Virus record (IMG/VR): IMGVR_UViG_3300020445_001256
Coordinates: 23,448-87,447 of that record
Strand: one strand, 5' to 3'
From: a virus
DNA: 64,000 bases
The notes beneath the pieces are model-generated. The model was not told the DNA's origin. It did no database searches and saw only the letters and a program-made list of their open reading frames with translations. This document shows, piece by piece, positions 22,616-46,600 of this stretch. Both the position numbers and the translations under genes were made by a program. The first letter of the stretch is position 1, and every line of letters starts with the position of its first letter.

Positions 22616-25600
22616 ATGACAAGTATCAATAAGGTTTCACAGGCAGTCAATAGACAGACTCCCGAATTTGTAGAGCAGGATTATCCTCTCTTTAATAAGT
22701 TTCTTGAGTATTATTATCAATCTCAGGAAAAAACAGGTCTAGGACAGAATATTCTTAATAACTTCCTTGGTTATTTGGATATTGATAAACTAGACATTAG
22801 CATTCTGGATGGTGCAACGAAGGTAGTAGAATCAATAAGTGCGACAGACGATATAATAATTGTAGAGAGTGTTGATCAATTTCTTGAGAACGATGGTTCT
22901 GTTCTCATAGGTGATGAAGTAATTTACTATGAAAAAGCACAAGCTGGACCCAATATTGCTCTAAGTCCAGGTGTTTCTTATGATCAGGTTAAATTAAAGT
23001 GGATTAACCTTGCAAGTCCATTAATGAGTTTTGATGGGTCTAGACAATCTTTCCCATTAACATCTCAAGATAATCCTATTGCTCCACCTTCTGTGCAGCA
23101 TTTGATTGTTAGTAATTACGGTAAGGTTTTAATTCCTGGTACAGACTATAGTGTCGAAGGAACAAATATAATATTCACTACTGCTCCTAGAACTAGAATA
23201 CCTGCTGATGATGCGTCATCAACTTATATTACTTACTTAAACGGTTTTAATGAGAATACGATTGTTGCTTTAGACAATCTTTCTGGTAGTTTTGGTGAAA
23301 GTAAGAGACAATTTACTATTACTAGATCTGGTGCAAGATATGAACCTATTGCTGATGAATATGTTCTTGCAATTTATGATAATCGTCTATTAACTCCAAA
23401 AGTAGACTTTTTCATCGATGGTGATCAATTTATCTTCTTAACAGCACCATTAAACGGTAGATTCCTTTCATTATTCTCTATTGAAGCACCTATTCCTTCT
23501 TTTGGTGCTGGTGCTGTAGGTTATGCACGTATTAGTGATACTGGAACTCTAACTGGTATTTCTATTAGTAAAAATGGTACTGGATATAAGTCTGAGTATC
23601 CTCCAAAGATTTCTATTAATACTGAGAATGGTAGCGGTGCTTCTGCTTCTGCTTTAGTTAATGGTCTTAAGAGTATTGCACTATTAGAAGGTGGTCAGGG
23701 ATATAGTAGCACTAATCCACCTGTAGTTCAAGTTCAAGCACCTACTGCTGTAGGAGCAACTGCAGCAACTGTTTCTGCGACTGTTACTAATGGTGCTGTC
23801 AGTGCTCTTACAATCACTAATTCTGGTTCTGGATATACATTCACACCTAGAATCACTTTCAGGCAACCAGGAGGTGCTGTACTAGGCACTCCAACCGTTG
23901 TTAATGGACAGATTACTGCAGTAAGTATTACTAGTTCTGGTTTTGGATATACAACTGTTCCAACAGTCTATATTGATGAACCAACTGGTACAAATCCAAT
24001 TAAAGCAGCGTTCCAAGCAGTTTTAAGTAGTGATGGTGAAATTACATCCATTAACATTTTAAATGCTGGTCAAGGGTATACATCTACTCCTAGAATGGCA
24101 GTTATTGACCCAGTAGGTGCTCAAGTTCTTGAAACTACTGTTGATAATCAAGGTAGAGTAACAAATATTGAACTTTTAAGTGGTGGTGTAGGTTATAGTG
24201 ATGTTCCTTCTGTTTATATCGTAGATAACAGAACTGATGCTACTGGTGCATATGCTGGTGGAACTGGTGCTATAGCAACTGCATCAATCTTCAATGGTCA
24301 GATTACAGATATTAATATTAGTGCTTTTGGTGGAGGATACAGTCAATCTGCTCCTCCCGTGGTTGTTATTCAAGCACCTCCTGCTGCTGAAGCATCTGCG
24401 GAGATTGGTTTAAATGAAGTTACTGGTTTTACAGTAAATCAAGCTGGTAGCGGATATCAGAAGGCACAATTGACTGGATGTGCTCGTGCTGCGTCTTCTA
24501 TTACTTCTTATACGGAAAGTGGTAACGCAATATTTACAAATAATACTATTGCATCTGCACATGCGGTAGATGAACCAATTAAGTGCTTAGATGCGTTATT
24601 TGTTAAGAGATTACTTGACAAGTACACAGAACAGTATTTACCAGATGTTCCTACATTAGATTACTCTAAAATTGATGTTAGAACAGCAATTAAGACAATT
24701 AAGGACTTTTATAGTTCTAAAGGAACATCATATAGTATTGGATATCTCTTTAAACTACTTTATGGTGAGACAGTTAGTATATCTTATCCTAAAGATCAGA
24801 TAATCAAACCATCTGCTGCAACATGGTCTATTGACACTATTTTGCGTGCTACTTTAGTTAGTGGTGATCCTACAGATATTCAAGACGGTCTTTTAACCCA
24901 AGAAGCGGATATTGCTGACCTTAATGTTAAAGAAGCAAGTGCTCTTGTAGAAAATTATATTTCAATTAGAACATCACAAGTTACCATATATGAATTAGTT
25001 CTTTCCGAAGAAACTATTGCGGGAACCTTTATTGTTCCTTATAAGACAAAATTAGCAGAACCGCTTAATAAAACTGAATCTATTATTACTGTTGACTCTA
25101 CAATTGGTTGGCCTGAAAGAAACGGTGAATTTATTATTGGTAGTTCAACTGATACTAGAGAAATTGTTCAATATAAGGAAAAATCATTAAACCAGTTCAT
25201 TGAGTGTACTAGATCAGTAAATGGTGTAGTTGAGGACTGGGATTCTGCTACAGAGGTAAAATCTAACTTTAATGTTTACATTAATAAGGGAACTCCTCAA
25301 GAAGTGGTGATGAATATTGTTGGTATCGTTGATGCTCAACAAACAACTCTTACTGATACTGGATCTTACTACTTACCTGGTGATAAATTAACAGTTTCTA
25401 AGTTAGGTGGAACAGGAACTACTCCTGAACTTACAACTTGGTTGTATAACGTTAAAAAATTAATCGAAGTTACTTCTGTAGCATTTGGTGGTATTAATAA
25501 CCAATCCGCGACTATTACTTGTAAGAATGATCACGGTCTTTTGGTAGGAGATCAGGTAACCATCTATGGTGCTAACCCAATCCTTTATAATGGAACATTT

Positions 25601-28600
25601 CTTGTAACATCTAGAGATAGTGATACTGTTTTCCAATATGCATTACCTCAACCTGCTACTGTTATCCCACAGGGTAATATTCTGGTATCTATTGACCTTA
25701 ACAAAGGTAAATCTACTAGTACTGCAATAAACAATGCTATTAGTCCTTATACGACTAACGTTCAGAACTCATTCTTTAACGACAATTACGTTTATCTTGC
25801 TTCTACTGGTATTCCAAACTATAATATTGGACCTTTCCCAGGATCAGCACTTCTTCCTGGTAACCAAAGAAAATTAACAAGATTCCCTAAAATACCTACT
25901 ACAATTTCTACAAAGGACTTAATTGGTGCTGGTCCAATTGGAACTTGGGTAAATGGTGTTTCTGTATGGTCTTATAAGTCAAGTTTAACTAAGACATTTG
26001 GTGCTATAACAAGTATTGGCATTACAAATGCTGGTTCAGGTTATGATGCTGCTTCTCCTCCTGCTATTACAATTTCTGGTGGTGGAGGTTCTGGTGCTAC
26101 TGCTTCCGTAGTTGTTGACGGTGCTATCAGTGAAGTTACTGTAACTACTGGTGGATCTGATTATACATCCTCACCATTGGTCTCTATAGTCGGTGGAGGA
26201 GGGTCTGGAGCTGCTGCAACCGCTATTATTACTAAAGGTGTTGTTTCACGTATTCTAATCAATTCTGGTGGAACTGGATATACTTCACAACCTCAAATTA
26301 CTATTGTAGGTGGAGGTGGTTCTGGTGCTGCTGCTACCGCATCTGTTAGAGGTCCGATTAAAACTATTAACGTTGCTTCTGGTGGTTCCGCATACACATC
26401 TAAACCTAGTGTTACTTTAAGTTCTGGTTCTGGTGCTGTTGCACAAGCAATTGTACAGAATGGACGTATTATATCAATTGCTATTATATCTGCTGGATCT
26501 GGATATACTACTGCTCCTGAAATTACTATTCAAGGTGATGGTTTTGGTGCAGTTGCTAGAGCAACTATTGACGTTGATGGAGAAAATGCTGGTAGAGTTA
26601 CTAATATTGAGATTATTAACCGAGGTATTGGATATCTTCAAGGAACTACTATTATTAATCTAGATTCAGTTGGATCTTCTGCATTATTCAGTGCAAATGT
26701 ATTTGAGTGGACTTATAACTTACAATCAACCGCAACTTTAGACTCTGCAAAGGGTGGTGTATTTGAAGGATATAATAATCAGTATGGTGGTGAATATGCC
26801 CACCTTTCTAACCCACAAACACTAAGATATATCTTAGGTGATAACCTTTATGAGTCAAACACTGGTACAATCCTAGAAAAAGAGGATTCTGTTGTTCACT
26901 CACCTATTATTGGTTGGGCATTTGATGGTAACCCAATTTATGGTCCTTATGGATATTCTGATCCAACTGACCAAGGTTCTGTAATAACTAGATTGAGTAC
27001 TTCATACAGGGTTAAACCTGCTCTTATATATGATGCTGCAACTAATCCATACCCAGTTAGAACTGATGGACCTTTACTTACGGATACAGATAGTAATGGA
27101 ACTCTATTGTATCCATATGGTTCTTTCGTTGAAGACTACGAATATGTTTTTGGACTAGGGGATCTAGACCAATATAATGGTCGTTTTTGTAAAACACCTG
27201 ATTATCCAACTGGTAGATATTGCTATTTTGTTACTATTGACAATACTACTGCTGGTAATCCTGAATTCCCATATGTTTTAGGACCAAGTTTCAACTCTGT
27301 TGTAGATAAGTGGAATTTAAGCACTTCTGCTGTTCAGCAGAACATTCCTACTGGTGTTGTCCGTTATAGAGACCCATATGAGAATGTTGACATTGATGTA
27401 TCAAGAGCACCTAATGTTTCTACAAATGCTCTTACAACTGAATCTGGAGATATAATCTTATTTGAAGTAGAAGATGAAGATAGAAGTGGTGTAATAGATC
27501 AGATAGAAACTGATGATCCAGATCAAATGTTTGAAGAATCACCTTTACAGTTATTTGATTACTTCCCTAAAGTAACATTTGACTCTAAAGTTGATATTGA
27601 AGTAGAAACTATCACTAAATTTGAAGATGCTTCTGTAAATGGATTTACTATTGAAAACCCAGGTATTAACTATCAGGTTAATGACCGTTTAGAATTTGAT
27701 AATACTGGTACTGATGGTACTGGTGTTTCTGCTCGTGTTTCTAGAATTAAGGGTGAAGCAGTTGAAAGTTATAGTTTTGAAAACATTAGTGGAGAGAATT
27801 TTGGTGTTTTAAAGACTACAGAACCTCATAACCTAGTAATTGGTGATAGTGTCTTTGTGACATATAATCCAATAATGAATAATACGAACAAGACCTTTAC
27901 TGTTCGTCAATTCAAAGGTATTGAAGAAATTGTTATTAATCAGACTGGTTCTGGTTATAATTCTGATATTCCTCCAACAATTACTATTGATAGTGCTACT
28001 GGAAGTGGTGGAGAATTACAAGCAGTTGTAACTTCTGTTGGAGCAATCGAGACTGTTAATATTATTAATTCAGGTTCTGGATACACAACTAATCCTCGTG
28101 TTATTCTTTCACATCCACAGGTGTTTAAGAAAGCAGATTACTATGTTTCTAAGATTGATAATAACAACTATGTTAAAGTAAATGACGTTGTTATTAATGA
28201 AAATAAAGAAATCTTTATTTGTGGTAAAACAAAGGATACTAATGGTAACGAAATTGGTTTTGTTTCTAAATTATCTGCAACTGGTGTTAAAGAATGGGAG
28301 AAAAATTTAGAACTTACTGGTGGTGGACAATATTGTGAATTCCAAAAACTTTATGTTGATGGAAATGATGTTTGGGTTGTTGGTAACAATAGACCAAATA
28401 GTAATCTTTTAGATTCATATAACCCAGATATTATTCTAGCCAAGTACACTCAAGCATCAAATGGTCTTAGTGCAACACTAGGATTCCAGAAAGGATATGC
28501 TGGTATTTCTGGTTCTACTCGTTCTGATAGTGTAACTGCAATTACTAAACTTTCTGATACTAGATTTGTTATAGGTGGTTATACAAATACAAACTCAACT

Positions 28601-31600
28601 AATCCTTTTGATGCATATATTGCTCTTATTGATACAACAGGTAATTTTGCACTTAAGAGAAAGGTTGCAGGTACTACTACTTCAGAAAAAATTACTGGAT
28701 TAGTTGTTAATGCTGGTAATGTTTATTTCTCTGTAGAGAGTGCTGCAAGTCCTAATGCTACTGCTATTGATCTTGGATTAGGTAAAGCAACAATTGGTAC
28801 TAGTGCAATTACTATTGATTATGTTAAAACATATTCAAATACTTCATATTCATTCTTAGATTCTAGTATTTGTATTGATGAATTTAATGAAATTTATTTA
28901 ACTGCAACTTGCAGACTTAAGGCAAATAATACAACAAAGAATAGTTTCTGGGTTGGTAAAACAGATATTGATGGTAATCTTATTTGGAACTATAGGTATC
29001 AGATACCTAATGAAAGTGGCACAGAATATGCAATTCAAGCAGTAAGTAAGACTGCAATTGATGTTTTTGGTGATCTTAACGTTGGTGTTACTTTAACAAG
29101 TGGAATTAACGGTCTTAAGACTGCAAGATCCTTTAAGATTGGTTATAGTGGTAATCTTAAGGAACATTCATCTAATCTCTTCAATCTTAATAATGTTGAA
29201 GGTGTTACTATTAATTCGTTAGATGTTGATAATTCTGGTGATGTTCATCTATATGGTCAATCTTCTTGGAATAGAAATGAATTCTTATTACCATTCACAG
29301 GTGGAGCAACAACAGATACAACTGGTCATTATACTCCAACTATAGTAACTACAGGAGGTTCATTAAGTTATGAAAATACTGTCCAAGGTGGATATGCAAA
29401 AATACTCGGATCTCAACTTGCAAGTCCAACTGTCTGGGAAAATGCTTACATTAAGTTCCCAGCTGCGGATCTTGGGACTAAACTTGCTGACGATTGGACT
29501 ATAGAATTCTTCCTTTATAGGGATAGTTCAAATAGTAATGTATTCAGTCAAAATGAAGAAACTCTAATTTCTATTGGTGATGCAACAGTCACAACTGGTG
29601 GTCTTTGGTTATACTTTGAAATTAGTACTGGTAAGATTGGATTAGCAGTTACTAATAATACTACTGCTTTAAATGCTGGAAGTGCTCAACTTAGCACAGC
29701 AACCACAATATATGCTACTAATACTTGGCAAACTATTGGATTAAAGAAAGAAGGAAATATATTTACTGTTTATAGTAATGGTATTCAAGTAATTCAATCT
29801 ACAGTTCCTGATACTTCATTAGGTAGTAAAGATTTAGTTATTGGTAATATTTCTGGTAGAAGTGGAACTCTTAATAACTGGCGTTCAAATGAACAGGGTC
29901 AATACCATGTTGATAACTTACGTTTGAGAAACAGAGCAGTTACACCAACTGTTCCTAGTGATATTGGTGTTTTACCTCTTGCTGGAGCATTTTCAATTGG
30001 ATATAATTGGGAAGATGATGCTTGGTTTACTACTAACTTAAACAAGTTTGATTATATTGATTACACTGGTATTGGTATTAAAGTTGATAAGAATGCTGAT
30101 GCTGCAAGAGTTGGTACTTATACAGAAAGAACTAATACTAAGTTAGGATTTATTAGAGCAGATGAAATAGGAACTACTATTACTCCTACATCACTTACTG
30201 TTGTAACAACAGGATTTGCATTAGCTGATGCTGGATTCCAAGGTTTAGACTTTGATGATGCCACTATAACAATGGCTCAAGATACTGAGACTATGACCTA
30301 TACTCAGGACGTATGGAGTTCTAGAACTGCTACTGTTCCTTCACCAGGTTCTCAGAAGTTATCTGTATCTGCTGTAGTTAAAGACAAATACTATTTCAAA
30401 GTAACTAATACTATAAAAATTGATAATGTTCAAGAACTTACTCTAAATCAGGCGTTTAATTTTACTACAGGAACAAAATTAAGACTTAATAATAATGCAG
30501 GAACCTTTGTTAATAGTGGATACATTATCAGACAGGATACTACTAATAATAAAATATATCTTGCAATTAATAATAATGCTTGGTCTAATGATCTAAACAC
30601 AGGTAACTTAGTTACAGAACAGTTTAGTGAGCAAAGCACTTATGGTATTGTTGGACCTATTCCTGCTGATGTTAATGAAATTGTAGGATATACATTTGCT
30701 CAGGTTAACAATACAACTCCTGGAACATTTGATATTGATCTTGATGATTATAATTTAAGTGGTACTGGTTATAATGCAGGTGGTGGACAAGACCTTGATA
30801 GTTATGCTAAGTTTAAACCTTATTCTGATAATGATTATTCAGTAAGAATTGATGAAGTTACTACTGGATCACCATATATCGTTGGTTCTGTTATTAATAT
30901 TACCGATAGTAATATTTCATATAATGCTGCTTATTCTACTGCACAAATTACTGGTTTAACTGCAGTTACCAAAATTACATTAGTTGCAAATCTAACTAAG
31001 ATTCTTCAAGTTAGTGCAGTATCTAATAGTGATGAAGTTTATGTAATTACTGGAACAAGTCATTACCTTTCTGCAGGTGAGATGATTTATGTTGATGGTA
31101 ACCCAACAGAGAACAGTCTTGACGAGTATGATGGTGCATTTGCTGTTAATTCTGTTGTAAGTCCATTAGAATTTACATATAAACTAAAACAGGTAGCAAC
31201 TACTTCTCCTGCTACATCAGCAGGTAGCGTTAACATATTTGTTAAATCTCCTGTATTGAAGATGTATTATGGTCACCAGTACATCTTTGACATGAGTCAT
31301 AGTTCATTACTTGGTGGTAACTTATCATTCTCTAAAGATAACCTATACAAACTTGAATATTCATTCAACTCAATTGAAAGAACTGGAACTCCTGGTGTAA
31401 GTGGAGAAGGTGTTCCTACACCTATAGTTAAGTTAAAAGTTGATGATAATATTTTAACTAACATATCATACTACTTTGATCCTTCAAGAATTGGAGCAGA
31501 TTCTCCAATTAATCCTTCTAGTTACCTAGATGTTACTAATTCTCCATATAAGGGAACATTCTCAATTAGTTCTGTTGCTGGTGCAACAATTACTCGTGGT

Positions 31601-34600
31601 GCTGATACATTCAAATTCCCTCTATTAGATGAACCAGAAGGTGATGCTGAAGTATCTCAGACAACTTATAGTACAAGTTCTGTTAAAGCAGTTGGATCTA
31701 TATCTGATGTTCGTATTGTCAACTCTGGTGGATTCTACACTAGACTACCAATTGTAAGTAGTATTACTTCTACAAGACAGATTGAAAGAGTTGCTATTGA
31801 GGATCCAGGTACTGAATATGCTAATGGTGTTTATAACGCTGTTCCTATTGCTGGTAATGGTGAAGGTGGATTAGTTGAAATTACTGTTGCTGATGGATTA
31901 GACAGTGAAGGTGTAACTATTCCAGGTCAAATTCAAGCAGTTACAGTTACTTCTCCAGGTAAAAATTATACTACTGCATCAATTGATATTGAAGCAATAC
32001 CTGGTATTCTTGGAGCAGGATTAACTGGTTCTGGTGCTAAATTAACTGTTGTTATTCCAAATGCAGGTACTCAGGCATCTATCTTTACTAAGGCAGATAA
32101 AGTTGGTAAGATTAAGAAACTTAAGAATAATAACTTTGGTTATGATTATCCTCATGACTATACACTACGCCCTGAGATTTCGTTCCCAATAAACGCACAG
32201 CTTACTTCTACAAGTATTCTTTCTAGTATTACTGTTACAAATCCAGGTTCTGGATATTCACAAGCACCTGCTGTTGTAATTACAGGTGGTGGTGGATCTG
32301 GTGCAACTGCAGAATCATCTATTAAGAATGGTAGATTAGACATAATCATTGTTAAGGATCCAGGTGCTGGATATTCTTCTACACCAACTGTTTCACTTAA
32401 GTCTTCATTCAACTATGTTGTTAACCTTGACTTAGGTCTTTTACAGTTTGCTTTCCCACATGGTATTACAAATGGTGCTGCTGTAACTTTAAACGTAGTT
32501 GATACAGGAGATGGTGCTGATTTCCCACTTGCTGCTGGTGCTGTTGGTCGTCTTAATGGAACTACTACTTATTATGCAATTTCTGGTGCTGCAAATTCAC
32601 TAGAAAATGACCAATTAAAACTTGCTCTTACTGCAGCAAATGCTGAATTAGGTGACGCTCTTTCCTTTGTTAACGCTGGTGAAGGTCGTCAACAAGTATT
32701 AACTGAATCATTTGGTGGTTCTGCTACTGCAAACGTTATCACTTCTACTTTCTTAGAAGGAGAACTTGTTTATCAAGGTGATTCATTAGATACTGCAACT
32801 GCTACTGGATACGTTTCTACTAACCAAGGTTGGCAGATTGGACCTAGAATTCTTAAGATTGTTGATTATACTGGAACTTTCGCAGAGACACAAAAGGTTA
32901 CTGGTGTTATTTCTAAGTCTTCAGGTACTATTAGTGATTTAAATATTGCTCGTGGTGTTCTTGAAATTGGTTCTATCACTAAAACTACTGGTCAATTCAT
33001 TGATGATGTTGGTAAACCATCTGAGATTATTCAGAAGATCCAAGACTCTTACTATTATCAGGACTTCTCTTATGCTATTAAGTCTGCTGTTTCTATTAGT
33101 GAGTGGAAAGAGATTCTTATTAAGAACGTTCACCCTGCATCATTTAAGGTATTTGGTGAGTTAAATCTATCTGATTATGGATTTATTCCAAATAAAGATA
33201 CAGATTTCCAACTTACTAAGTCTGTTGAACTTGCAAGAGAAGCGATTGTTCCAAATATTCAAAGTTTTGCTCTTGTAGAACCAATTTACTCAGAATTTAA
33301 TAATACAGAGGTTTTATTCCGTCAGAAGAGATTGACATCTTCTGAGAACATTTTGACTTCTGTTGTACAGAGAATTGATGATATTTCTGGTCAATTTGAT
33401 GGTGAGAAGATTGCATTCCCTCTAACAGTTGATGGCAACACCGTTGTTGCTAACGCTAATCAGTTAATGATTGTTTTGAATGGTATTGTTCAGAACCCTG
33501 GAACTGCATTTGAGATTCAAGGTGATTCTATCGTCTTTAGTGAACCACCACAACCACCTGCAAGTGTTAAGTATGTTAATATTAAAATATCACAGATTGC
33601 AATTGTAAGTAATACATTTACTAACCAAAGTGGTATTTTCCCAAGTCCAGGTAATGTTTTAACTGGAACAAACTCTGGTGCTAAATTGACTGTAACTTCT
33701 GTTGTTGGTGATACTATATTTGGTTTCATTACAGAAGGAACATTTATTGCTGCAGAAAACGTAACTGTTAGTGCAACTGGATTTAGTGCTAACTTAGATG
33801 TTCAAAGTAATGTTTCTAATATTGGATTATTCCAGTATGGAGAACAAGTTAAGAACTTAACTAATGATACTGCTAAAGTAGAACAGATTAACCTACAAAG
33901 AGGTTTGGAAAATGCATTAGCACAATTACGTTATACAGTTGGTCCTTCTACAACTTCAATAGAAGTAGTTCCTGATGGATCAACTACAGATGGTCCTGTT
34001 CCTGCTGGAACATTTACAACCAGTACAAGTTATCAACTTGGATCTGAAGTTGTTACTGTTACTAATATTGTTGATGGAAATGATTCAACAACTCTAACAG
34101 TTAGCAGAGGACAAAATGGAACAGTTGCTGTTTCACATCAAGAAGATTTCCCAATTTACGGAACTGTTATTGCAGTAACAGATGAACTTACTTTAAGTAA
34201 GACTGCTGGAACATATAAGTCTACTCCAGGTCTATTTGATATTCAATTAAATGATGTTATTATTGGTGCTAAATCTGGTGTTGTTGCTCGTGTTACTCAA
34301 ACAAGTGCATATCAAGATCCTACAACTCAAGAATTTATAAGTCAGGTTAATATTTCTGAAGGATCATCATTCTTTGGTCTATTGATGAATAGAATTTCAT
34401 CTACATCATATCCAAATATTGTTCTTGATGATATTTCTAAATCACAAGTTAGTGTTGTTCAGTATACTGATAATACTACTGCTTTCAACTCACAGTTCCC
34501 TGCTAATGAACAACTTAATAATATCGTAGTTCCTTATGATAATCTAGTTGGTGGACCTATTCAAGAGAATGAAACTATTAGAAATTACAAACTTAAGTAT

Positions 34601-37600
34601 GGTGGAAATACTGGTGAATTTATTGCTGGAGAAGGTGCGAGAGCAAGAAAACTTTCTTACATCAATCCTAAAGGTGATGGATTCTTTGCTAAAGGTCAAG
34701 TACTTAGAACTCAAGATACTAAAGCAGAAGTTCTTGGATTTAATCAGGCAGATCAGGTAATCTATCTTGGTAAAGTTGGTAGAACAAAGGCAAATGGTCA
34801 AGACTACCATATCCCATCATTCTCCAATAGTGCTCAACTGGATACCACAGTCAAATACTATGGAACTGCTTCATTACAATTAGCAGCAGCAACTAACGAT
34901 TATGTCACTATTCCTTCTTCAAGTGAATTTGCTTTTGGAACAGGTGCATTTACTATAGATCTAATGTTGCGTCCTGCTGCATCTTCTATAAGTGGAACTG
35001 CTACTATACTTGATATGAGAGCATCTGCTGCGAATGAAGTTGCTGGTAGACTATACTTACAAGCAGGTCAAGTTCGTTGGAACGTTAATAATGCTGATAT
35101 AGTTACTTCTGGTGCTACAGCTCTTACTGCAGATACTTGGGTTTATGTTTCCATTATGAAGTCTGGTACAACAACTAAGATTTTATTAAATGGAGTTGAA
35201 GCAGGTACAGCAACAGATAACACAACATATGTTGCAAAACCAATTAGATTAGGTTCTGATTATGCTGGTGCTAATAGTTTAACTGGATTCATTGATGAAT
35301 TAAGAGTATCTAATACTAACCGTCATCAAACAATTCCATTTACTCCTCAGAATGGTATTTGGCAGGGTGATGCTAATACTAAGTTATTATTACACTTTGA
35401 TGGTGCTGATGCTCAGACATGGACTGAAGATTGGTCTGGTGCAGAAGGATTTACTGCTGGTGAAGACTTTAATAATGATGCTATAATAGCTTCAACTCGT
35501 TCTTCTAATGCTACTCCTGGAGGATTTACTGGTAATACTCAAAGATATTATGATGCTGCTGATTTAATTCTTCTTAATAAGGAATTCCTTGCTCAAGAAG
35601 TTGTTTATATTCTTAAAGAAAGACATCCTCATCACACTGTTAAGGGTAGTGAAGTTGATTGTGAAGATGATGTTCGTGATGTATTAGATGCTATTATTTC
35701 TGACCTTCGTAATGGAACAAATAATAAGATCTGGGATGCATCTTCATACTATGTTGATAGAACATCATCTCCAATCGTATTGAAGTTTGTTTCTAATGAA
35801 GTTGATGAAGTAGTTTACACTTATGACAAACTTGAGGAAATGCTCAAGTATATTGTTAATAATACTCTTTGGGATGTTCAAGGTGATCATGGTTTAGTAC
35901 AGAAGACTGATTCTACTATTACAGAAGCTAGTGGTTTAACCACACAAACCTTCCAGCCTACTGCTGCTGCATATGATGCAGAAAGTGGTTATATGGTATT
36001 GACTGCTTCTGGACATGGTATGAGAGCAGAAAGAGGAATTACTGCAACTGGTGCTAGTTATACTGCAACAACAGGTGTTTTACAATTAACCGTTGCTACT
36101 ACCACATTTAGTGTATCTACTGCAACTTATGACCATACAACTGGTGTTATGGTCATAACAATTGGTTCTCATAGTTTGACAACCAATGATAATATTAGAA
36201 TTGCCACTGGTGGAATTACATTTAGTTGTAACAACGGTGGAGTTAGTACTGGTGCATATCCTCGTGCAAATGGTGCTAATACAGAGAGTGGTGCTGACTA
36301 TGCATACGATAGATGGCTTCCAATCCTTGCTGTAGGTGCAACAACTATTACTGTTAATGTTAATGGTGGTAAGGGTGCTATTAGTCATGCCTTTGCACAC
36401 ACATATTCAACTTCTTCTGCAGGATGTATTACTGCTGGTCATGGTCTTAATGAGGGAGATAGAATCAAGTTTGATCCTAATTCTCTTGTAATGAATTGCA
36501 CCTCTGATGGTAATACAGTTAATCAGAGTTATCCAAGACCTGATGATCCTGCTGCTCAAGGTTGGTTAGAAGTTATAGAAAATACTAGTACTACATTTGA
36601 TGTAAACGTTGGTAAATCACCTACTGTAAATTATACAGCAAGTGCTGGAACTTATGATGCTGATACTGGTTTCTTAACCATGAATATTGGTCAGCATAAC
36701 CTAAGAACTAGTAGAAAGTATACTGCAACTAATGCTGATTACACTGCATCTTCAGGTGCAATGAAGATCACTATTGGTGATAATATTGATGTTCATGATG
36801 CAAGTTATGTTGCTAAGAATGGTTTATTAAAATTAAATATTGGTCATCACAACTTCAAACAAGGTAGTTTAGTTAAGATTGCTCCTAACTCACTATTCTT
36901 TACATGTAGTATGGATGATCATCAATCAGTTCATGCATATCCAAGATCATCTGATCCTGTTTACAATGATGATATTGAAGTTATTGATATAACTGATGAT
37001 ACTATTACTGTTGATGTGGGAACATCTCCAGAAGTTTCATATACACCTACTGGTGCAACTTATAACACCTCTACAGGTGACATGGTTCTTACCATTGGTG
37101 CTCATAGTTTAGCTGCTGGAACTAGTATAAGACTTTTAGATGAATCTATAGCATTCAGTTGTAGTTTTGGTAGTGGTGGTACTAGTTCATATCCTCGTCC
37201 TACAGTAGACACTAAGAATGTTCAAACAGCATCTTATAATCCTCAAAGTGGTATATTATCCGTAACAACCACTGCTGCACATAACTTAACTGGTCCTACT
37301 GCTAAGAATGTTACTGATGCTACTTACAATGCATCTACAGGTATTTTACAATTAGAATCTGCTGGTCATGGATTTAGTCTTGGTGATAAGATAAGAATTA
37401 AAGATGATGCTTTAGTGTTTACTTGCACTAAAGATGGAAATGCAACAAACCATACATATCCAAGATCAACTGATCCTGTAAGTGGTCAATGGTTGACTAT
37501 TGTTGCTAAAGCAACTGATACGATTGATCTTCAAGTTGGTGCTTCTAAGATTGGTTTAAATGAATTTGCTCATACATGGGCTGGTGGTACTGCAAGTAAT

Positions 37601-40600
37601 GCTATTGAAAAAGCAAATGATGTAATTAAGATTGTTGATGAGTCATTAACATTTACTTGTGCTATGGATAATAATGGCACTAACCATTTGTATCCACGTT
37701 CAACTGACCCAATTAGCGGTAGATGGTTAATTATTGAGAATGTTGCATCAACTACTTTCGATGTTCAAGTTTTAGATAACGCTCCTTCTACTAACACATC
37801 TGCTCACACATTTGTTACTGCTACAACTGGTGCTATTCAAGCTAAGAGAGACCCTGCTCAAGGAACTGCACTTCCAATTACTGCTGTAGGTGCAACAACT
37901 ATTACTGTTAACGTTACCCCTGTTACTTCATATAGTTCAACAACTCATACATTCCAGTCTGCATCTCAAGGTGCTGTTAAGGTTGGTGGTGATTACACTC
38001 ATAAATTTGTAGATGCTGCCTCTGGTGCTATTATTCCTAATCACGGATTCTATACTGGTGATAGAATTATGTTTGAGGAAGGATCATTAGTCTTTACTTG
38101 TGGTATGGATAGTGATGCTACTAGACATGCATATCCAAGAGAAAGTGATCCATTCTATAATAAATGGTTGCCAATTAGTAGTGTAACTACAAATACTTTT
38201 AATGTTAATGTTGGAACAACTACTAATACACAATTTACACCTACTGGAGGAACCTACGATGGAACCACAGGTAAATTAGGTATTACTATTGGTGCTCACA
38301 CACTTGAAGTTGGTCAACATATTAAGATTGCTACTGGTGGAATTTCATTCACTTGTGCAATGGATGGTGGTACTGCTGTTAAGGCATATCCTCGTGCAAC
38401 TGATCCAGCAGACGGTGTTACTCTTCCAATTCTTGAAAGAACTGATACTACTATTACTGTTGATGTTGGTCAATCACCTTATGTTTACTTTGATGTTTCT
38501 GCTGCTACCTACAACCCAACATCGGGTGTCATGGTACTTACAATTGGAGATCATGGATTAACTGCTAATACAAGTATTAGACTTAAAGATAATTCATTAA
38601 CCTTTAGTTGTGATAATGGTGGTGTTGGAACTGGAACTTATCCTAGATCAAGTAATGACTACGTTTATCAGAAAGCAATTAATATTGATTCTGTAACTGA
38701 TACTACAATCACAATTAATGTTAATGGTGGTCAAGGTGCTATTACTAACACCAATGCTCATACATTTGTAAGTGCTTTACCTGGAGCAGTTATTGCTGGT
38801 GGTGCTTGGGCTCATACTTATTCAACTGCTGCATCAAATGCAATTTCAGTTGGTGGTAACTATACTCATAACTTTAAATCTGCAACTCCTGGTGGCATAG
38901 TAAGAGCTGGTGAGACTATTAGAATTGCTAAAGATGGTATTTCATTCAAGTGTTCACAAGATGGATATCAAACAATTCATTCATATCCTAGAACAGATGA
39001 TCCTGGATATAACACTTCTCTACCAATCTATAATGATGGAACATCTTATACTGCATCTAATGCAGCATATAATGCATCGACTGGAGAGATGGTTATCACT
39101 ATTAATTCACATGGATTTACAACCAGTGATCAAATTAGAATCGAAAATAATTCACTAACATTTACTTGTGTTAAGGATAGTAATACATCTATCCATAGTT
39201 ATCCTAGAGATAACGATCCTTATGTTCGTAGATGGTTGAGAGTTAGTGCTGTTACTGAAAATACATTCACTGTAAATGTAGGTAAGGCATCATCCTCAAC
39301 ACAACAGTACGCACACACATTTGCTAGTGCTGCTAAGAATGGTATTACCAAACGTGATAATACTGTTACAGTTAACGTTGGTGCTACTCCAACTAAGAGT
39401 TTCACACCGACTGCATCAACTTATAATCCTTCAACTGGTGCTTTAGCATTAACTATTGGATCACATAGTCTACCAGCTCCAACCACACATACACCAACTG
39501 ATGTTGCATATAATCCAACAACAGGTATTATGACTCTTACTATTAATGGTCATAACTTCTCTAATGGTGAAAAGGTTAAGATTGCTGATGGTGGATTGAA
39601 ATTAAGTTGTGCATTTGGTGGTGCTTCAGGTGGTGCTGCACAGAAAGATTACCCACGTTCAACTGACCCAATTAGCGGTAAGTGGATTCCTATTTCTGGT
39701 GTAACTACAAATACATTTGATGTTCAAGTTCTAGATGTAATTCCTTCTACAAATACTGACACTCATTCATTCGTATCTGCTGTTACTGGATGTGTAAGTA
39801 AAGCAAATTCAACAGTTAAGATTGCTGAGAATTCACTAGTTTATAAGTGTGCTGAAGATAGTAATGCTACTGAACATGCTTATCCAAGAAGCAACGTTGC
39901 TACTCATACAGCAGGACCAGGAACAAATTATAATCCTGTTACAGGTGTTCTAAAACTTAGTGTTCCTACAGAAAGTCATACACCTTCCACAGCAACATAT
40001 AACCCAACAACGGGTGATATGGTTCTAACTCTAGATTCAACTTCTGGAACATTTAATGTTTCTAATGCAACTTATAACACCTCTACAGGTGATATGGTAC
40101 TTACTATTGGATCTCATAGTTTAACCACATCAAATAGAATTAAACTTAAAGAAGGATCTTTGAAGTTTGCATGTAACTTTGCTAATGATAATTATCAGAC
40201 TGCAAAAGCATATCCAAGAGCTTCAGGTGCTAATACTACTAATGGTGCTGACTATGCATATAATACATTCTTACCAATTACCGCAGCTGATGCTACAACT
40301 ATTACTGTCAATGTTAATGGTGGTCAAGGTGCTATCAGTAACAATAATCAGCATAACTTCTTAACTGCTGATGCTGGTGCAGTTATTGTTGGTCATGGAC
40401 TAGAAGTTGGTGATAGAATTAAGATTGCTGATGAATCATTAACCTTTAGTTGTGATAATGGTGGTGTTGGAAATGGTTCATATCCTAGATCATCTAATGA
40501 CTATGTTTATCGTAAGTGGATTAGAATTAGAGCAGTAACTGGAACTACTATTACTGTTAATGTTAACGGTGGACAAGGTGCTATTACCAATACTAATGCT

Positions 40601-43600
40601 CATACATTTGTATCTGCTACTGCTAATTGTATAACCTCTGGTCATGGAATGACTAATGGGTCTCCAATTAAGATTGCTGATAGTTCACTATCATTCAGTT
40701 GCACTGAAGGTAGTGGTGGTACATATGCATACCCAAGAGCAACTGACCCAGTTTCTAAGAGATGGTTATTCATCAATAATGTAACTGATTCATCATTCGA
40801 TGTTAATGTTCTAGATACAATTCCTTCAACCAATGTAACTACACATACATGGATTAGTGCTGTTGCTAATGGTATTATTGAAGGTGATCCTATTGTCGGA
40901 CAAGCAGTTCCTGTTGAATCTGTAACTTCTACAACTATTACAATTAATCCTCTTGATGGTGATGTTCCAACTAATACATCTGCTCATACATTTGAGAAGT
41001 TAAACACATATCAATTCCAACCATCTGCTATTACTTACACTCCATCGACAGGTGTAATGTCAGTAACTTCAACAGCTCATAAGATTGAAGAAAATGATAA
41101 GATCTTTATTAAGGATAATTCACTTTCATTCAAGTGTAATATGGGTGATGATGCTGGTATTCATACTTATCCTCGTGAGTCAGATCCAGTTTCTAATAAG
41201 TGGATCACTGCTACCAATGTAACTGCAAATACATTTGATGTTAATGTTGGTGCTACACCTAATATCTTCTTCACTCCTTCCGATGCGACATATAATCCAA
41301 CAACAGGTATTATGTCACTTACGATTGGTAATCACGATCTAAGACCTGGTAGTAGTGTTAAGTTAAGTCAAGAATCATTAACATTTAAGTGTGCTCATGA
41401 TTCATATGCAACTAACCATTCATATCCAAGAAATACAATATTAACTCACACACCAACTGATGCTGATTATCATCCTGATACAGGTATCATGACATTGACT
41501 GTCAATAATCATAAGATGGGTGATGGTGATTGGGTCAAGATTGCTGATGGTGCTGTAACATTCAAATGCACATATGGTGCTGGTGTTCATACATGGACTG
41601 GTGGTACTGCAACTGGTGCTGTTCAAGTTCAAGAAGCAGGTTTAGGAAACTTTGATGTTACTGGTGCTGACTATAATGCCTTAACAGGTGATATGGTATT
41701 GACAGTTGGATCTCATTCAATTACAACTGGTAACACAGTTAAGATTGTTGCTAACTCATTAACATTCAGTTGTGATCTTGATGCTAACGCAACGAACCAC
41801 ACATATCCTCGTGCAACTGACCCTGCATATGATACTGCTCTTGCAATATCTGCTGTAAGTGGTACAACAATTACAGTTAACGTTGGTGTAAGTTCACCTG
41901 GAACTGCATATCCTCGTGCTTCTGATCCTGTTAGTGGTAAGTGGATTAAGGTATCTAATACAACTACAAATACATTTGATGTTCAACTTTTAGACATCGT
42001 TCCTTCAACAAACACAAGTATTCATACATTTGTTTCTGCTGTTACTAATGGAATTAGTCAGAAGAAAGATAGTGCTTATGATTCTCCAATTGAGATTGTT
42101 GATACTACTGCTACAACTATTGATCTTAAAGTTGTTAAGAAATTACCTTCAACAAACACAACCAATCATATATTTGTATCTGCTGCATCTAATGCGGTCA
42201 TATCTGGTGGTTCATATACACACACCTTTGTTACAGCAGACCCAGATGCTATTACTAGATCTATAGTACATACTGGTGGTAATTATAATCATGTATTTAC
42301 ATCATCCTTGACTGATGGTGTAATAACTGGTGGTAACTATGTTCACACCTTTGTATCTGCTGAAACTAACGGTATTAAATGTGCTGGTGATTCAGTTTAT
42401 CTAACTCCTGGATCACTTACATTTAAGTGTGCTCAGGATAATTATGATAGACCTACTGCATATCCTAGAACCACAGATCCTTCTTACAATCAACTATTAG
42501 AAATTAAAGAGGTAACTGGTGATACATTTACTATTGATGTTGGTGCTGCTGCAGATAAGAATCAATATGCTCATACATGGGTAAGTTCTGCACAGGGTGC
42601 TGTTAAGAAGTCTGATTACAATCTTAGAGATTGCACAGATGTATTCACTACAGTTGGTAACTTAGTTGACATACTTACAGATACACTAACAAATGCTAAT
42701 GCAACTCCTGTTGTTGATCATCTAGCAAGTGTTACTAAGGTTACACCACCTTATAAGTTCTACGGTGCAACTGTTGATGCATTTAATGAGACTCCATTCC
42801 CAGTATCATATCATAGTTCTGCTAACGATATTATCGTTACAAATCAAATTGATGAAGATACTCAATATAGATTCCGTGATGCTGCATACTTAGTTCGTGC
42901 AAATGCTGGTGTTATCGTTGATAAGGCATCATATGATATGCTTCAACGTTATCCAGATCTTGCTATTAGTATGCCAAGAAATGCTAATGGAACATCTACA
43001 GATGGTACTGTTCGTTGTAAGCAAGATTTACTTGAGATCGTTACTGCAATTGCTACTGATCTTGAAAATGGTGGTAACTTACAGACACTAAAAGCTGCTA
43101 AGTTCTATATCGGTGTTAACGGTGGATTACAGCATATTCGTTTACAAGTATTCCAATCTGCATACGCACATACTCGCCTTGGAGTTTATCTTAAGCAAGC
43201 AATTACAGGTGATTTAACATACGATAATACTGATAATATTATTGTTCGTGACTGGGGTATTACTGATAATAGTAGTTCTGGTAACTGTGCTAATGTTCAA
43301 ACTGCTATTGACACATTAATTACATCAGTTAATGATTTAATCGCACCTACAGATAGTGATTACGCACTTGCTGCAGATAGACTTTACTTCAATAAGGACT
43401 TCATTGCTGAAGAAATTACTGGTCTTACAACCGCATACTTCACTTATGATTTGAATGGTGTTAATTATTCAGCACTTACATATCCTGGATCTACTGGAGA
43501 AACCACATGTCGTAGAGACCTTAAGTTAATCTTAGATGGTATTATATCTGATTTACAAACTGGTGGTAATGAAAGTACTATTATTGCAATGGAGACATAT

Positions 43601-46600
43601 TTGAGTGCTACATTACAAATTGAGCAAGTTGATGATGAATTAGCAGCAACTATCTACGCTATTGATAGACTAAGACATATCGGTGAATTTGCTATTAAGG
43701 ATAAAGTATTCTCACAAAATGAAGGATCAGGTGCTGCTGATGAATATGAAGCAGTTCATACTAACAGAGCAGAATATAGAGATGGATTAAGTGCAACTAA
43801 TAATATCCTCAATCCTGTTTATCATTACCGTGATCTTTGCGATATCGCAATTAATATTCTCGCTCCTGGTGGTAAGGCAGCAAGAAGTGCTGTTAAGCAA
43901 CTTAAGTACAACCAAAATTACTATAAGGAAGAATTAACTACTCTTGTTAATTCACAGTTTGGTGCTGGATCTTGGACTTATAATACATTCATTGATGAAA
44001 TGGTTGGTAATACTGTCCATGACATCATTACAACTGACTTTAATAAGACAAGAATTGCTTACACTATACAATTATCTAATACATTCAATGAATATGTTGC
44101 TGGAGAAACTATTGTTTCTAGTAACAATGGTAAAGCAACTGTTCTAGAGTGGAATAGTGATGAAGAGATATTATATGTTTCTTCATGGACTGGTAATAAG
44201 TTTGAACCAACTCAGATATTAATTGGTGCAGATTCTAATGCATACGGAACTGTTGCTGCTAATGGAGTTAGTGCTCCATATACTTGGTATACAGAACCTG
44301 CTAATCTTAAAGCTATTAATTCTGCAAGATTAATTACTTCTAATATTGCTGGTCAAATTGCTGGAACTAATATAGCATCTAACTCAGAAAACTTTACAAC
44401 TGGATGGACAAATACAGGTACGTCTGTATCTGCAGATCAACTTGATTCACCAGATAGCACAGCTACTGCAGATAAGATAATTGCTACTGCTGTTGCAGGT
44501 GAACACTTTATTCATCAAAACTTCTCTATTAGTGCTTTTGAAACATTTGATAGTGATGCAGTTAAGTTTGATAACACTAATGAAACATTTGACACTGGTG
44601 CTGTTGGAACTGCTCAATCTCAGCAGTATACATTCTCAGTCTTCTTGAAGAAGGGTGAATTTAATAGAGTTCGTGTTCAAATGGGTCTTGATACTGGAGC
44701 TGCTGGTGAACAGTTAGCATTCTTCGATCTTAACCTTACAGATGGAACATTTGGTGGAATATTCACTCCTGGTAATGGTATTACGATTGATGCTTTTGGA
44801 ACTATTCCTTATGGTAATGGTTGGTATAGAGCATACATTACAGGTACATTCTCCTTCGGATTTGGTGAAATTAGACCACTAATTTATGTTAGAGATGCTG
44901 CAGGTAATGCTCAGTATACTGGTGACGGTAGTTCTGGAGTATATGTTTGGGGTATGAAACTCTTTAAGGGTATTCTTGATCCTTATCAATCTGCTGCTGG
45001 TCAGGTATTCTATGCTGATACAGAGTATAACATTAAGACTTACGCATTAGATCTATTACAAGATTATATGATTAAGGCACTTACAGGATCTCTAATATCA
45101 CCTTCCACAAACTCAGGATTCTATTCATACTTTGATAATACACTTGATACTGATTATAAGTATCGCTCAATTGAAAGATTAGTTAGATATAACTTAAATA
45201 TTATTCGCGAACAATTAACAGTTGATAGTTACTATACAACTCTTACTACAACGAATGGAGTTTCTATTCCTACTAAGACTTATGGAACTAGAAGTATTCC
45301 CGCAGGTATTACTGGTGGACTACAAAATTCAATTTATGTTTATGGACTTCAAAGTGATGCTAATGCTGAAATTGAAGAAATTAGTGAGAACTCAGGTAAG
45401 GTTGTTCAAGTTTACCAGAGATTTAGAATTGATGGTGATATAACTGACGGTCCATTCACTATGAATGAAGTAGTTGCTAAACTCGGTAATAATTCTATTA
45501 CTGGTGTTGTTTATGGATACCATTTTGATGAGAACTACAAGTACCTAGATGTTAAAGTTACTGCTGGTCCTTGGGCAGTTACAGACCAAGTTGTTGGTGC
45601 TACTAACTCAACTACTGCACAGATCAGTGCTATAGAAGATAGACTTCATATCATTGATGTTAAGGGACAATTTGAGAATGATATCCCATTCAAGGGTTAT
45701 GCAAGTTCTGCTACAGCATCACCTACTGGTTACATTAAGGCAGAAGCTTCTATAACAGATAACACTGGTGGAACATTAACCGTTGATACTGAATCATTAA
45801 CAGGAACATTTGAAGCAACATCTGTTGTTTACCCATCATCTTCGAGACAATATATAGACGTATCTAAATACGCTGGTCTTGATATAACGGTTGGTGATAG
45901 AATTGCTTCGGGTGGATATAAGAGATTTGGTATTTCTGTTCTAAGTGGACTTAATAGTTTCACTCAAGGTAATAGACTTTATAAGGTTGTTTCTGGTATT
46001 CAAGATCCTCTCACATACGGTATTATCACTGAAGTTGATCTTGATAATAGTTACATCTATGTCGCAGAATACCAAGGAACATTTACGCAGGGTGATGTTA
46101 TAGGTGACTATGGCACAAATGCTTCGTTCCCGATTGGTTACGCAACAATTCTAACGATTGTTACTACTCAAGGTGCTGCTGCAGGACTCGTACAGGATAT
46201 TCGTGATATTGCTCTGAATAAGAGAATATATCTCACAGACGTAGCAGGAACATTTGACGATAAAGATTTCATTATCGGTCCTGACGCTTACAGGTCTGTA
46301 GTTCTTGGAATCACTGAAATTAAGGCACGTGTTAAGCGTTCCTTCAAGGGATTTGATGGAACTACAACTACGTTCCCACTAACAATTAATACAGGAACAT
46401 CTTACTTACCTGATCCTGCAGGTCATATGTTAATATTCCTTAATGGTATATTACAACCTCCAGGCGCAACTAACGCATATACAGCGTTCTCCAACCAGAT
46501 TCAGTTTACTGAAGCACCAGAACTAGGTGCATCCTTCACAGGATTCTACGTTGGTAAATTGAGACAGTTGGATGATATATCCTTCGAGTTTGACTCCTTA

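Follow-up and report, generated by a model that had tools for sequence, protein, structure and literature searches.

A probable recursive domain-insertion array of 21 nested units in a giant gp7-like phage protein

Can a protein domain be inserted into copies of itself, and those copies into further copies, until 21 of them lie within one another in a single polypeptide? This question is raised by a stretch of viral DNA of 64,000 nucleotides (nt), positions 23,448 to 87,447 of the IMG/VR record IMGVR_UViG_3300020445_001256, which we refer to as the window. One open reading frame (ORF) in it, at 22616..47260 on the + strand, is intact over 8214 codons and encodes a giant gp7-like protein of 8214 amino acids (aa). 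A first-pass annotation, prepared by a model from the sequence alone, had pointed to window positions 35939-42613, which correspond to aa 4442-6666 and are in frame with this ORF. It described 21 copies of one unit with five ordered segments (A to E), in which runs of opening segments are closed much later by runs of orphan closing segments. Our analysis confirmed that the observation is real, with one branch of the proposed tree corrected. We estimate the probability that the region is a genuine recursive domain-insertion array at roughly 85%.

To define the unit, we built a 104-position hidden Markov model (HMM) from the six uninterrupted copies (units 3, 9, 11, 12, 14, and 17 in the numbering used below) and searched the whole protein with it. 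Twenty-one copies of a unit of ~104 aa were found to tile aa 4446-6665 of the ORF product, which is the extent of the nested array. The tripeptide YPR likewise occurs 21 times, always within aa 4548-6616, and zero times elsewhere in the giant protein. Outside aa 4445-6665, all matches of the model to the protein had negative scores, and the unit was absent from every other reading frame of the window when all frames were searched. Within the array, the model recovered both full and partial copies, and the break points of the partial copies pair in a last-in-first-out manner, agreeing to within a few HMM positions. In unit 1, for instance, the opener ends at aa 4474 (HMM position 30), and the closer, which lies 2121 aa after the opener, takes up the model again at aa 6590 (position 27); the first-pass figure for the inserts within this domain had been ~2100 aa. 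The breaks in units 7 and 19 both run from position 57 to 57, that in unit 8 from 26 to 27, and that in unit 20 from 47 to 51, and unit 13 is broken twice, from 26 to 28 and then from 57 to 58.

We also converted the region into segment tokens, for which segment HMMs were iterated once, leftover gaps were re-scored, and a His motif was used for segment B. The counts were 21 each for A, B, and E, and 22 each for C and D, with C20 (the C segment of unit 20) and D4 each being split. These tokens merge into 42 fragments, to which we applied a stack parser that operates on HMM coordinates and permits one circular permutation. With the permutation taken up by unit 21, the parse showed 0 violations, 0 unclosed units, and a depth of 8, and it returned the tree 1{2{3,4{5{6{7{8{9}}},10{11}},12,13{14,15{16{17}}},18{19{20{21}}}}}}, in which 7 units are leaves and 14 are interrupted. 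The equal segment counts and the HMM fragment map thus bear out the 21 nested, non-tandem copies, and the formal parse reproduces the balance, the maximum depth of 8, and the 7 leaves that had previously been obtained by hand. The runs of orphan closers also lie where they had been placed, with E11, E10, and E5 at nt 38726-38899 and E19, E18, E4, and E2 at nt 42146-42379. The pieces of each unit are given below in window coordinates, as derived from the segment tokens, the stack parse, and fragment tiling.

22616..47260, + strand: giant gp7-like baseplate or virion structural protein ORF (from PHROGs, Pfam, and gene order)
35951..36022 and 42386..42610, + strand: unit 1 (root), opener A-B and closer C-D-E
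36041..36091, 36434..36613, and 42335..42379, + strand: unit 2, A, then B-C-D, then E (orphan closer)
36107..36439, + strand: unit 3, uninterrupted leaf inserted after A2
36632..36703 and 38909..39034, + strand: unit 4, first pieces, A-B, then C and the first half of D
39356..39382 and 42281..42325, + strand: unit 4, last pieces, second half of D (after leaf 12), then E (orphan closer)
36719..36775, 38036..38215, and 38858..38899, + strand: unit 5, A, then B-C-D, then E (orphan closer)
36797..37021 and 37994..38035, + strand: unit 6, A-B-C-D, then E (orphan closer)
37040..37198 and 37850..37987, + strand: unit 7, A-B-C, then D and E
37217..37288 and 37616..37843, + strand: unit 8, A-B, then C-D-E
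37307..37615, + strand: unit 9, uninterrupted leaf and the deepest unit (level 8)
38234..38470 and 38810..38854, + strand: unit 10, A-B-C-D, then E (orphan closer)
38489..38800, + strand: unit 11, uninterrupted leaf
39047..39355, + strand: unit 12, uninterrupted leaf in the D hairpin turn of unit 4, folded alone
39401..39472, 39812..39889, and 40886..40993, + strand: unit 13, A-B, then C, then D and a short E that closes before unit 18 opens
39488..39805, + strand: unit 14, uninterrupted leaf
39929..39958 and 40637..40879, + strand: unit 15, A, then B-C-D-E
39977..40030 and 40388..40642, + strand: unit 16, A, then B-C-D-E
40052..40393, + strand: unit 17, uninterrupted leaf
41015..41251 and 42215..42256, + strand: unit 18 (child of unit 4), A-B-C-D, then E (orphan closer)
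41270..41431 and 42074..42208, + strand: unit 19, A-B-C, then D-E
41447..41575 and 41903..42058, + strand: unit 20, A-B and the first part of C, then the end of C (YPR) and D-E
41588..41629 and 41651..41887, + strand: unit 21 (circular permutation), E ahead of A-B-C-D

The hand-drawn topology holds everywhere except at unit 18, which had been made a child of unit 13. This unit belongs to unit 4 because unit 13 has already been closed by E13 (aa 6119-6126) when A18 begins at aa 6134. Node 4 has four children (5, 12, 13, and 18) and node 13 has two, instead of three each. When E13 was dropped, the parser recreated the misplacement of unit 18, together with one violation and two unclosed units; therefore, E13 is needed for the balance of the tree. 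The term 'fractal', which the first-pass annotation had applied to this protein, is a metaphor, and the actual structure is a finite recursion tree.

Unit 21, which interrupts the C loop of unit 20 at a point flanked by the Cys residue and YPR, is circularly permuted: E comes first (aa 6325-6338), and A-B-C-D follows (aa 6346-6424). The permutation is supported because four units lack an E after D21 and only three orphan E segments follow. When the pieces of the split units and of the permuted unit were joined in silico, each of them gave one full-length match to the leaf-trained HMM, with scores of 74-144 bits, starting at HMM positions 2-9 and ending at positions 85-103. In other words, the reconstituted discontinuous units align with the uninterrupted leaves. 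Of the 2220 residues, 2049 (92%) belong to unit fragments; adjacent fragments are joined by short linkers, with a median of 5 aa and a range of -2 to 13. Within the runs of orphan E segments, neighbours are separated by 1-8 residues, the longest gap (8 residues) being that from E18 to E4. The pieces of each host domain thus add up to exactly one complete domain, and complete inserts are nested last-in-first-out over at least two levels; both are characteristics of a recursive insertion architecture.

Could such an order be structurally meaningless? This would be so if the region were a linear β-rich fibre or solenoid of five short sub-repeats, the order of which had been scrambled by recombination. 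Complex β-strand repeats are frequent in phage fibre proteins, and Sullivan et al. (2005) flagged them in other ORFs of P-SSM2 and P-SSM4 in the available part of their report (PMC1079782); some relatives of the present protein are also labelled 'tail fiber protein' by PHROGs. However, none of 300,000 shuffles of the fragment order was as good as the real parse (the best shuffle had 7 errors, and the mean was 24), the break points agree in HMM coordinates, and all five segment types occur in equal counts. Moreover, as described below, whole units are inserted or deleted at the loops of orthologous units, and AlphaFold2 folds a contiguous unit as a compact nine-strand domain with a predicted template modelling score (pTM) of 0.86. 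A scrambled linear fibre is hence very improbable.

We also examined the conservation of individual residues. Y8, G13, H22, C41, and Y52-P53-R54 are invariant in 21/21 units, and D57, T73, and H90 are kept in 20/21. Their retention is equal in split and unsplit units, and the invariant residues are also constant in a set of 29 contiguous units drawn from six related loci as well as the window. Among them, the His of segment B, the Cys of C, and the His of E come from different segments, and these three residues may represent a metal or structural site that would form only when the pieces join.

Another view of the orphan pieces is that they are decaying remnants of partly deleted units, or that the repeats were misassembled. 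Repeats are prone to both assembly error and deletion, and the tokens E13, A6, and A15 are weak. However, two independent assemblies from different metagenomes in IMG/VR (L003 and L004) are colinear with the window over the whole 2225-aa region, with identities of 91.1% and 87.7%, respectively. Their alignments (2228 and 2224 columns) contain 3 gap positions each, and their trees are identical to that of the window, which refutes the misassembly that the first-pass annotation had named as a possible flaw. The DNA copies inside the region are merely 60-91% identical to one another and are therefore too diverged to collapse in assembly. In addition, the ORF is unbroken along its full length, and the split units retain all of the invariant residues. 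Decay or misassembly is thus scarcely credible. On the basis of the shuffles, the conservation, and the independent contigs, we rejected the linear-fibre, decayed-remnant, and misassembly readings.

If domains have been inserted in this way, then it introduces questions concerning how the array came about. To investigate this, we compared 33 sources, namely the window, 30 IMG/VR loci, P-SSM4, and S-P4. A tblastn search with the region matched 325 phage records, all with cyanophage or marine virus names, and the relatives found in this way are annotated as 'structural protein', 'gp7: baseplate wedge initiator', and similar. A megablast search of the region against the phage collection, from which the genome of the window may be absent, gave short patches only. 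By unit number, the related loci can be grouped into classes of 9, 11, 19, 21, and 29, all of which are nested; in the 19-unit class, the units are divided between two clusters of 15 and 4. A clean parse, 1{2{3{4,5,6{7,8},9{10,11}}}}, was obtained for P-SSM4 and for seven IMG/VR loci. The comparison of tree topology across cyanophage gp7 orthologues, which had been suggested as a check, accordingly gave the same tree in L003 and L004 and whole-unit insertions and deletions in the other classes. The relative L005 has 29 'YPR' units and gave no clean parse (7 violations), and we claim no depth for it.

A single step in this series can be read from an alignment of the stretch 13{14,15{16{17}}} with its orthologues (25 rows). 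In 13 rows, which belong to the 11-unit class, unit 15 is contiguous and the stretch is 317-318 aa long. In the other 12 rows, unit 15 is interrupted precisely at the junction of its A and B segments by the nested pair 16{17}, and the stretch is 541-554 aa long. The alignment thus shows one clean block of insertion or deletion. Reciprocal best orthologues between the window (w) and an 11-unit phage (P) were also identified, with values of 0.69 for w2-P2, 0.70 for w4-P3, 0.65 for w5-P4, 0.60 for w12-P5, 0.62 for w13-P6, and 0.69 for w14-P7, and their tree positions are kept. Unit 5 is cut in three by 6{7{8{9}}} and 10{11} in the window, and its orthologue P4 is contiguous. These comparisons indicate that orthologous units have gained or lost complete domains at one and the same site, a further characteristic of recursive insertion. 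As judged from the alignments, the gain and loss of units between related phages at the loops of orthologous units can be regarded as shown.

The closest pair of paralogues consists of units 11 and 16, which share 67% protein identity. The longest DNA repeat in the tree, 234 nt with 76% identity (window 38543-38776 versus 40385-40618), joins the same two units, and a 'VNVNGGQGAI' subtype is common to units 3, 11, 16, and 17. The likeness of units 11 and 16 fits a comparatively recent copying of this subtype. Because of this 67% identity and the 234-nt DNA repeat, the sequences suggest that new inserts are copies of existing units.

The 19-unit relatives (L006-L015) have a second, separate nested cluster, 16{17,18{19}}, ~230 aa downstream of the first (for example, at aa 4690-5129 of the L006 ORF); it has no equivalent in the window. 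We also conducted a profile search against 1.84 billion cluster representatives, which returned 740 proteins at an expectation value (E-value) of 0.001 or less, including 238 at 1e-30 or less, with lengths of ~200 to ~7000 aa. The parser called 113 of the best 150 representatives nested, although this figure is a rough one. Nested and tandem arrangements both occur in the family, and their proportions are rough; one library protein with 9 units (P0007) is purely tandem, with a depth of 1. A small nested example is the 296-aa library protein P0139, which was parsed as 1{2}. Another one, P0002 (4764 aa), has 24 units arranged as six repeats of a four-unit nest, each lying inside the previous one. 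Its parse reached a depth of 9 with 0 violations and 6 units open, so that either the protein is truncated or these openers are never closed.

Next to be considered is the fold of the unit. We ran AlphaFold2 on leaf 12 with an alignment of 29 non-redundant contiguous units. The resulting model had a predicted local distance difference test score (pLDDT) of 94.3 and the pTM of 0.86 mentioned above, with nine β strands of at least three residues and two short helical turns. When the 19 interruptions in the array were mapped onto this model, all of them fell in five inter-strand loops: eight in β2-β3, either before or after the invariant His; one in β4-β5; three in β5-β6, after YPR; one in the β6-β7 turn; and six in β7-β8. 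In three of the 19, one end lies a single residue inside the end of a strand. The insertion points are thus predicted to be in loops of the host fold, as would be the case in a recursive insertion architecture. The first-pass annotation had proposed a β unit with adjacent termini that tolerates insertion in its loops; the all-β fold and the positions in loops are supported by this model, and adjacent termini are compatible with the data. If the chain ends of a unit lie side by side, both the circular permutation of unit 21 and linkers as short as those observed become possible.

We also modelled aa 5590-6130, which correspond to 13{14,15{16{17}}} and contain five units, three of them split, with a 25-sequence alignment. 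This 541-aa nested model had a pLDDT of 81.5 and a pTM of 0.74. The split pieces show the strand pattern of the leaf, and their blocks have pLDDT values of 79-86, compared with 80-83 for the leaves.

A topology that is nested in sequence might still give folded units that are interdigitated or domain-swapped, with orphan E strands or A hairpins completing the barrels of their neighbours. Domain swapping has been reported for some of the recursively inserted HABAS domains of Si3, an insertion in the cyanobacterial RNA polymerase, in the available text of PMC11515920, and the orphan E strands in the present array lie in runs only 1-8 residues apart. However, each unit has precisely one copy of each of the five segments, and the invariant His of B, Cys of C, and His of E persist throughout the array. 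Orthologues that are contiguous in one phage and split in another are about 65% identical, which argues for the same fold. Furthermore, swapping between homologous units would still yield 21 leaf-like barrels. Therefore, we consider such swapping unlikely, and we favour the recursive insertion of units that re-form complete domains.

To place the unit among known folds, we searched sequence and structure databases. A Pfam search of the region returned nothing above the cut-off, and a profile search of the PDB with the unit alignment returned nothing significant (best E-value, 0.017). With Foldseek, the 541-aa multi-domain model gave noise only against the PDB (template modelling score [TM], about 0.1), and against BFVD it matched only homologous cyanophage proteins, which carry no fold name. 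The best Foldseek matches of the leaf model were the endosialidases of phi92 (4hiz), K1F (1v0e), and NF (3gvk), with query TM values of 0.50-0.55, root-mean-square deviations of 3.2-6.4 Å, Foldseek probabilities of 0.94-1.00, E-values of 0.1-0.3, and identities of 14-16%. These were followed by FlgT, the N-terminal β-barrels of V/F-ATPases, and Uba1/Uba6. No RNA polymerase, hybrid-motif, or biotinyl/lipoyl chain was among the top 50 Foldseek rows of the leaf. The searches therefore revealed no likeness of the unit to HABAS or the sandwich-barrel hybrid motif (CATH 2.40.50.100), with the limit that Foldseek may miss a distant likeness. The most fitting description of the unit is that of a small, barrel-like β domain from a previously undescribed family, because it has no Pfam family, no sequence relative in the PDB, and weak fold matches only.

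Several points weigh against the reading of the region as a recursive insertion array. The permutation rule was introduced post hoc, after the data had been inspected; a strict parse without it goes wrong once unit 21 is reached, accumulating 6 violations and leaving 6 units open, and under these strict conditions 93 of 200,000 shuffles equal the real order. Some of the tokens are weak: E13 scores 0.1 bits as a segment token, A6 and A15 score 2.9 and 1.1 bits, respectively, and all 21 B tokens rest on a short His motif. For E13, the segment is covered by a full-unit match of 18.9 bits, and its His is conserved. The automatic parser was clean in 11 of the 33 sources (the window, L003, L004, P-SSM4, L018-L023, and L025), and the remaining 22 fail by one to seven tokens or are truncated. 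Piece-by-piece orthology is too noisy for the short A and E pieces to prove pairing; those of unit 5 find their best matches in other units. Among the 134 multi-unit proteins within the best 150 library representatives, 16 parse cleanly (8 nested and 8 tandem), many of the uncleanly parsing proteins being truncated or divergent. Finally, the AlphaFold2 evidence consists of pLDDT, pTM, and secondary structure rather than contacts between pieces. Taking these points into account, we regard the structural interpretation as strongly supported where sequence topology and evolution are concerned, and as plausibly supported with regard to the fold.

Based on these results, we propose the following mechanism. 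A loop-tolerant, all-β module of about nine strands has been duplicated and pasted, singly or as nested groups, into five surface loops of its own copies. During synthesis, interrupted units are completed only after translation of their inserts, again last-in-first-out; the leaves would fold first and draw the host pieces together. The topology, the conservation, and the confidence and secondary structure of the models suggest that split units re-form the leaf fold in three dimensions. Given that each parent and child would be tied by two short linkers, the product may be a stiff, branched chain of 21 small barrels, projecting from each baseplate wedge. Its most likely role would be that of a peripheral baseplate or fibre-like structure for adhesion or spacing at the cell surface, in which the number of units changes quickly between phages.

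This functional role of the array, adhesion or spacing at the baseplate or fibre, is tentative, with odds that we place a little below even. The variable unit number and the weak lectin-like resemblance to endosialidases fit host recognition, and they are no proof of it; against this role, the best fold match, that to an endosialidase with a TM of 0.55, has an E-value of about 0.1. The 'dendritic antler' shape and the host-capture function put forward in the first-pass annotation are speculation. A wider scenario combines a self-propagating 'copy-and-insert' domain, branched and doubly tethered trees of barrels on the baseplate, the deepest and largest natural recursion known in a protein, the rapid remodelling of the tree (9-29 units) as a host-range or adsorption trait, and co-translational stack folding. 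As a whole, this scenario is more doubtful still, and we regard it as possible only. If the co-translational stack is true, then the first hairpin of unit 1 waits for its partner over more than 2100 residues, and the array offers a natural model for the limits of discontinuous domains.

Other features were noted in the remainder of the giant protein and in its surroundings. Within the first 1128 aa (window 22616-26000), matches were obtained to phrog_701 and to PHROGs labelled 'baseplate wedge subunit' (E-value for the latter, 1e-122). Pfam Baseplate_wedge (PF23786) shows a partial match at aa 685-729, which covers 45 residues only and scores 37 bits against a cut-off of 27. The gene order around the ORF agrees with the annotated order gp7-gp9-hypothetical-gp8-VrlC of P-SSM4. 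Judging from this N-terminal baseplate-wedge module and the position beside gp9 and gp8, the protein qualifies as a T4-type gp7 baseplate wedge protein. A YHYH domain (Pfam PF14240; E-value, 1e-27) was found at window 26708-27250 (aa 1365-1544), and a Laminin_G_3 or concanavalin-like lectin domain (E-value, 2e-19) at window 34892-35325 (aa 4093-4236). The N-terminal part (window 23600-24200, aa ~330-530, and ~25900-26400) contains many short 'GxGY(T/S)S.P.V' repeats, whose PHROG matches carry the labels 'head closure Hc2' and 'baseplate wedge subunit' and which constitute a repeat family distinct from the nested unit.

A helical-looking motif, C..D...[ILV]..[ILV].D[LI]..G(G)N followed by ..A..Y, occurs at aa ~4349, ~6801, and ~6965 (window 35660-35760, 43016-43120, and 43508-43610), and a weaker copy (RDCTDV...) lies directly after the tree at window 42626-42690 (aa ~6671). 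In the 19-unit class, the second, four-unit nested cluster is again trailed by a 'GDCADV' motif. Because copies of the helical motif flank the tree on both sides, all 21 units together may have been inserted into a helical repeat module or between such modules.

How does this array compare with known systems? The gp7 of T4 has ~1000 aa, and one gp7 is present per wedge, that is, six per T4 baseplate; it is not known to contain such a nested array. The present protein shares a baseplate-wedge N-terminus with T4 gp7 and with the 'gp7-fused' giant genes P-SSM2 orf113 and P-SSM4 orf080, and its gene order gp7-gp9-x-gp8-VrlC is the one annotated in P-SSM4. Sullivan et al. (2005) described genes of more than 15 kb fused to gp7 homologues in P-SSM2 and P-SSM4 as likely fibre subunits, and the available part of that report makes no mention of a nested architecture (PMC1079782). 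We also found no description of nested repeats in cyanophage gp7 in the full-text literature, a search that did not cover subscription journals or supplementary files. The giant proteins are probably too long for public sets of predicted structures, and the architecture may have been overlooked for that reason. The present analysis defines a domain family that has no Pfam entry and whose proteins are labelled only 'structural protein', 'tail fiber', or 'gp7'.

Tandem Ig-like, FN3, and BIG arrays of phage fibres and capsid decorations are similar in that small β modules occur in multiple copies on the virion surface. In contrast to these, the gp7 copies are nested, and each parent-child pair has two linkers instead of one. 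The β-barrel domain of phage endosialidases, the best structural match of the leaf, is also a small β domain in a phage host-recognition protein, and it is itself an inserted, sugar-binding domain. However, the E-values of 0.1-0.3, the identities of 14-16%, and the lack of a sequence signal in the PDB profile search set it apart. We therefore treat the modelled similarity as a lead for a possible lectin-like role and not as evidence of membership.

The closest parallel is Si3 of the RNA polymerase β' subunit (rpoC2). The first-pass annotation had stated that no protein with self-insertion to this depth was described; recursive insertion as such is known from Si3, and it is the depth, the size, and the domain family that are new. 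According to the available text of a survey of 2.7 million classified domains, the deepest case was Si3, with 8 domains in a 6-level recursion (PMC13114784), and cyanobacterial Si3 has elsewhere been described, in the part of the report at hand, as a set of nine mutually inserted HABAS domains that includes domain-swapped ones (PMC11515920). As far as these sources go, recursive insertion had been documented chiefly in this one case, and six levels was the survey maximum. In both systems, a family of small β domains is nested in its own loops over several levels, nodes with more than one insert occur, and a large, rigid appendage is built in Si3 and would be built by the gp7 array. The gp7 array differs in having 21 units and eight levels, against 8-9 domains and six levels in those accounts, with 29 'YPR' units in its relative L005. 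It also differs in its domain family, in belonging to a virion baseplate protein rather than an enzyme, in the circular permutation of one unit, and in a unit number that is labile among related phages. The latter provides a graded natural series (9, 11, 19, 21, and 29 units) in which single insertion events can be read from alignments, and which opens questions about the origin of insertion-tolerant folds, the co-translational folding of discontinuous domains, and the remodelling of baseplate appendages. With 21 units, eight levels, branching, and a circular permutation in a domain family seemingly unrelated to that of Si3, the gp7 array is apparently the largest and deepest natural recursive domain insertion found so far.

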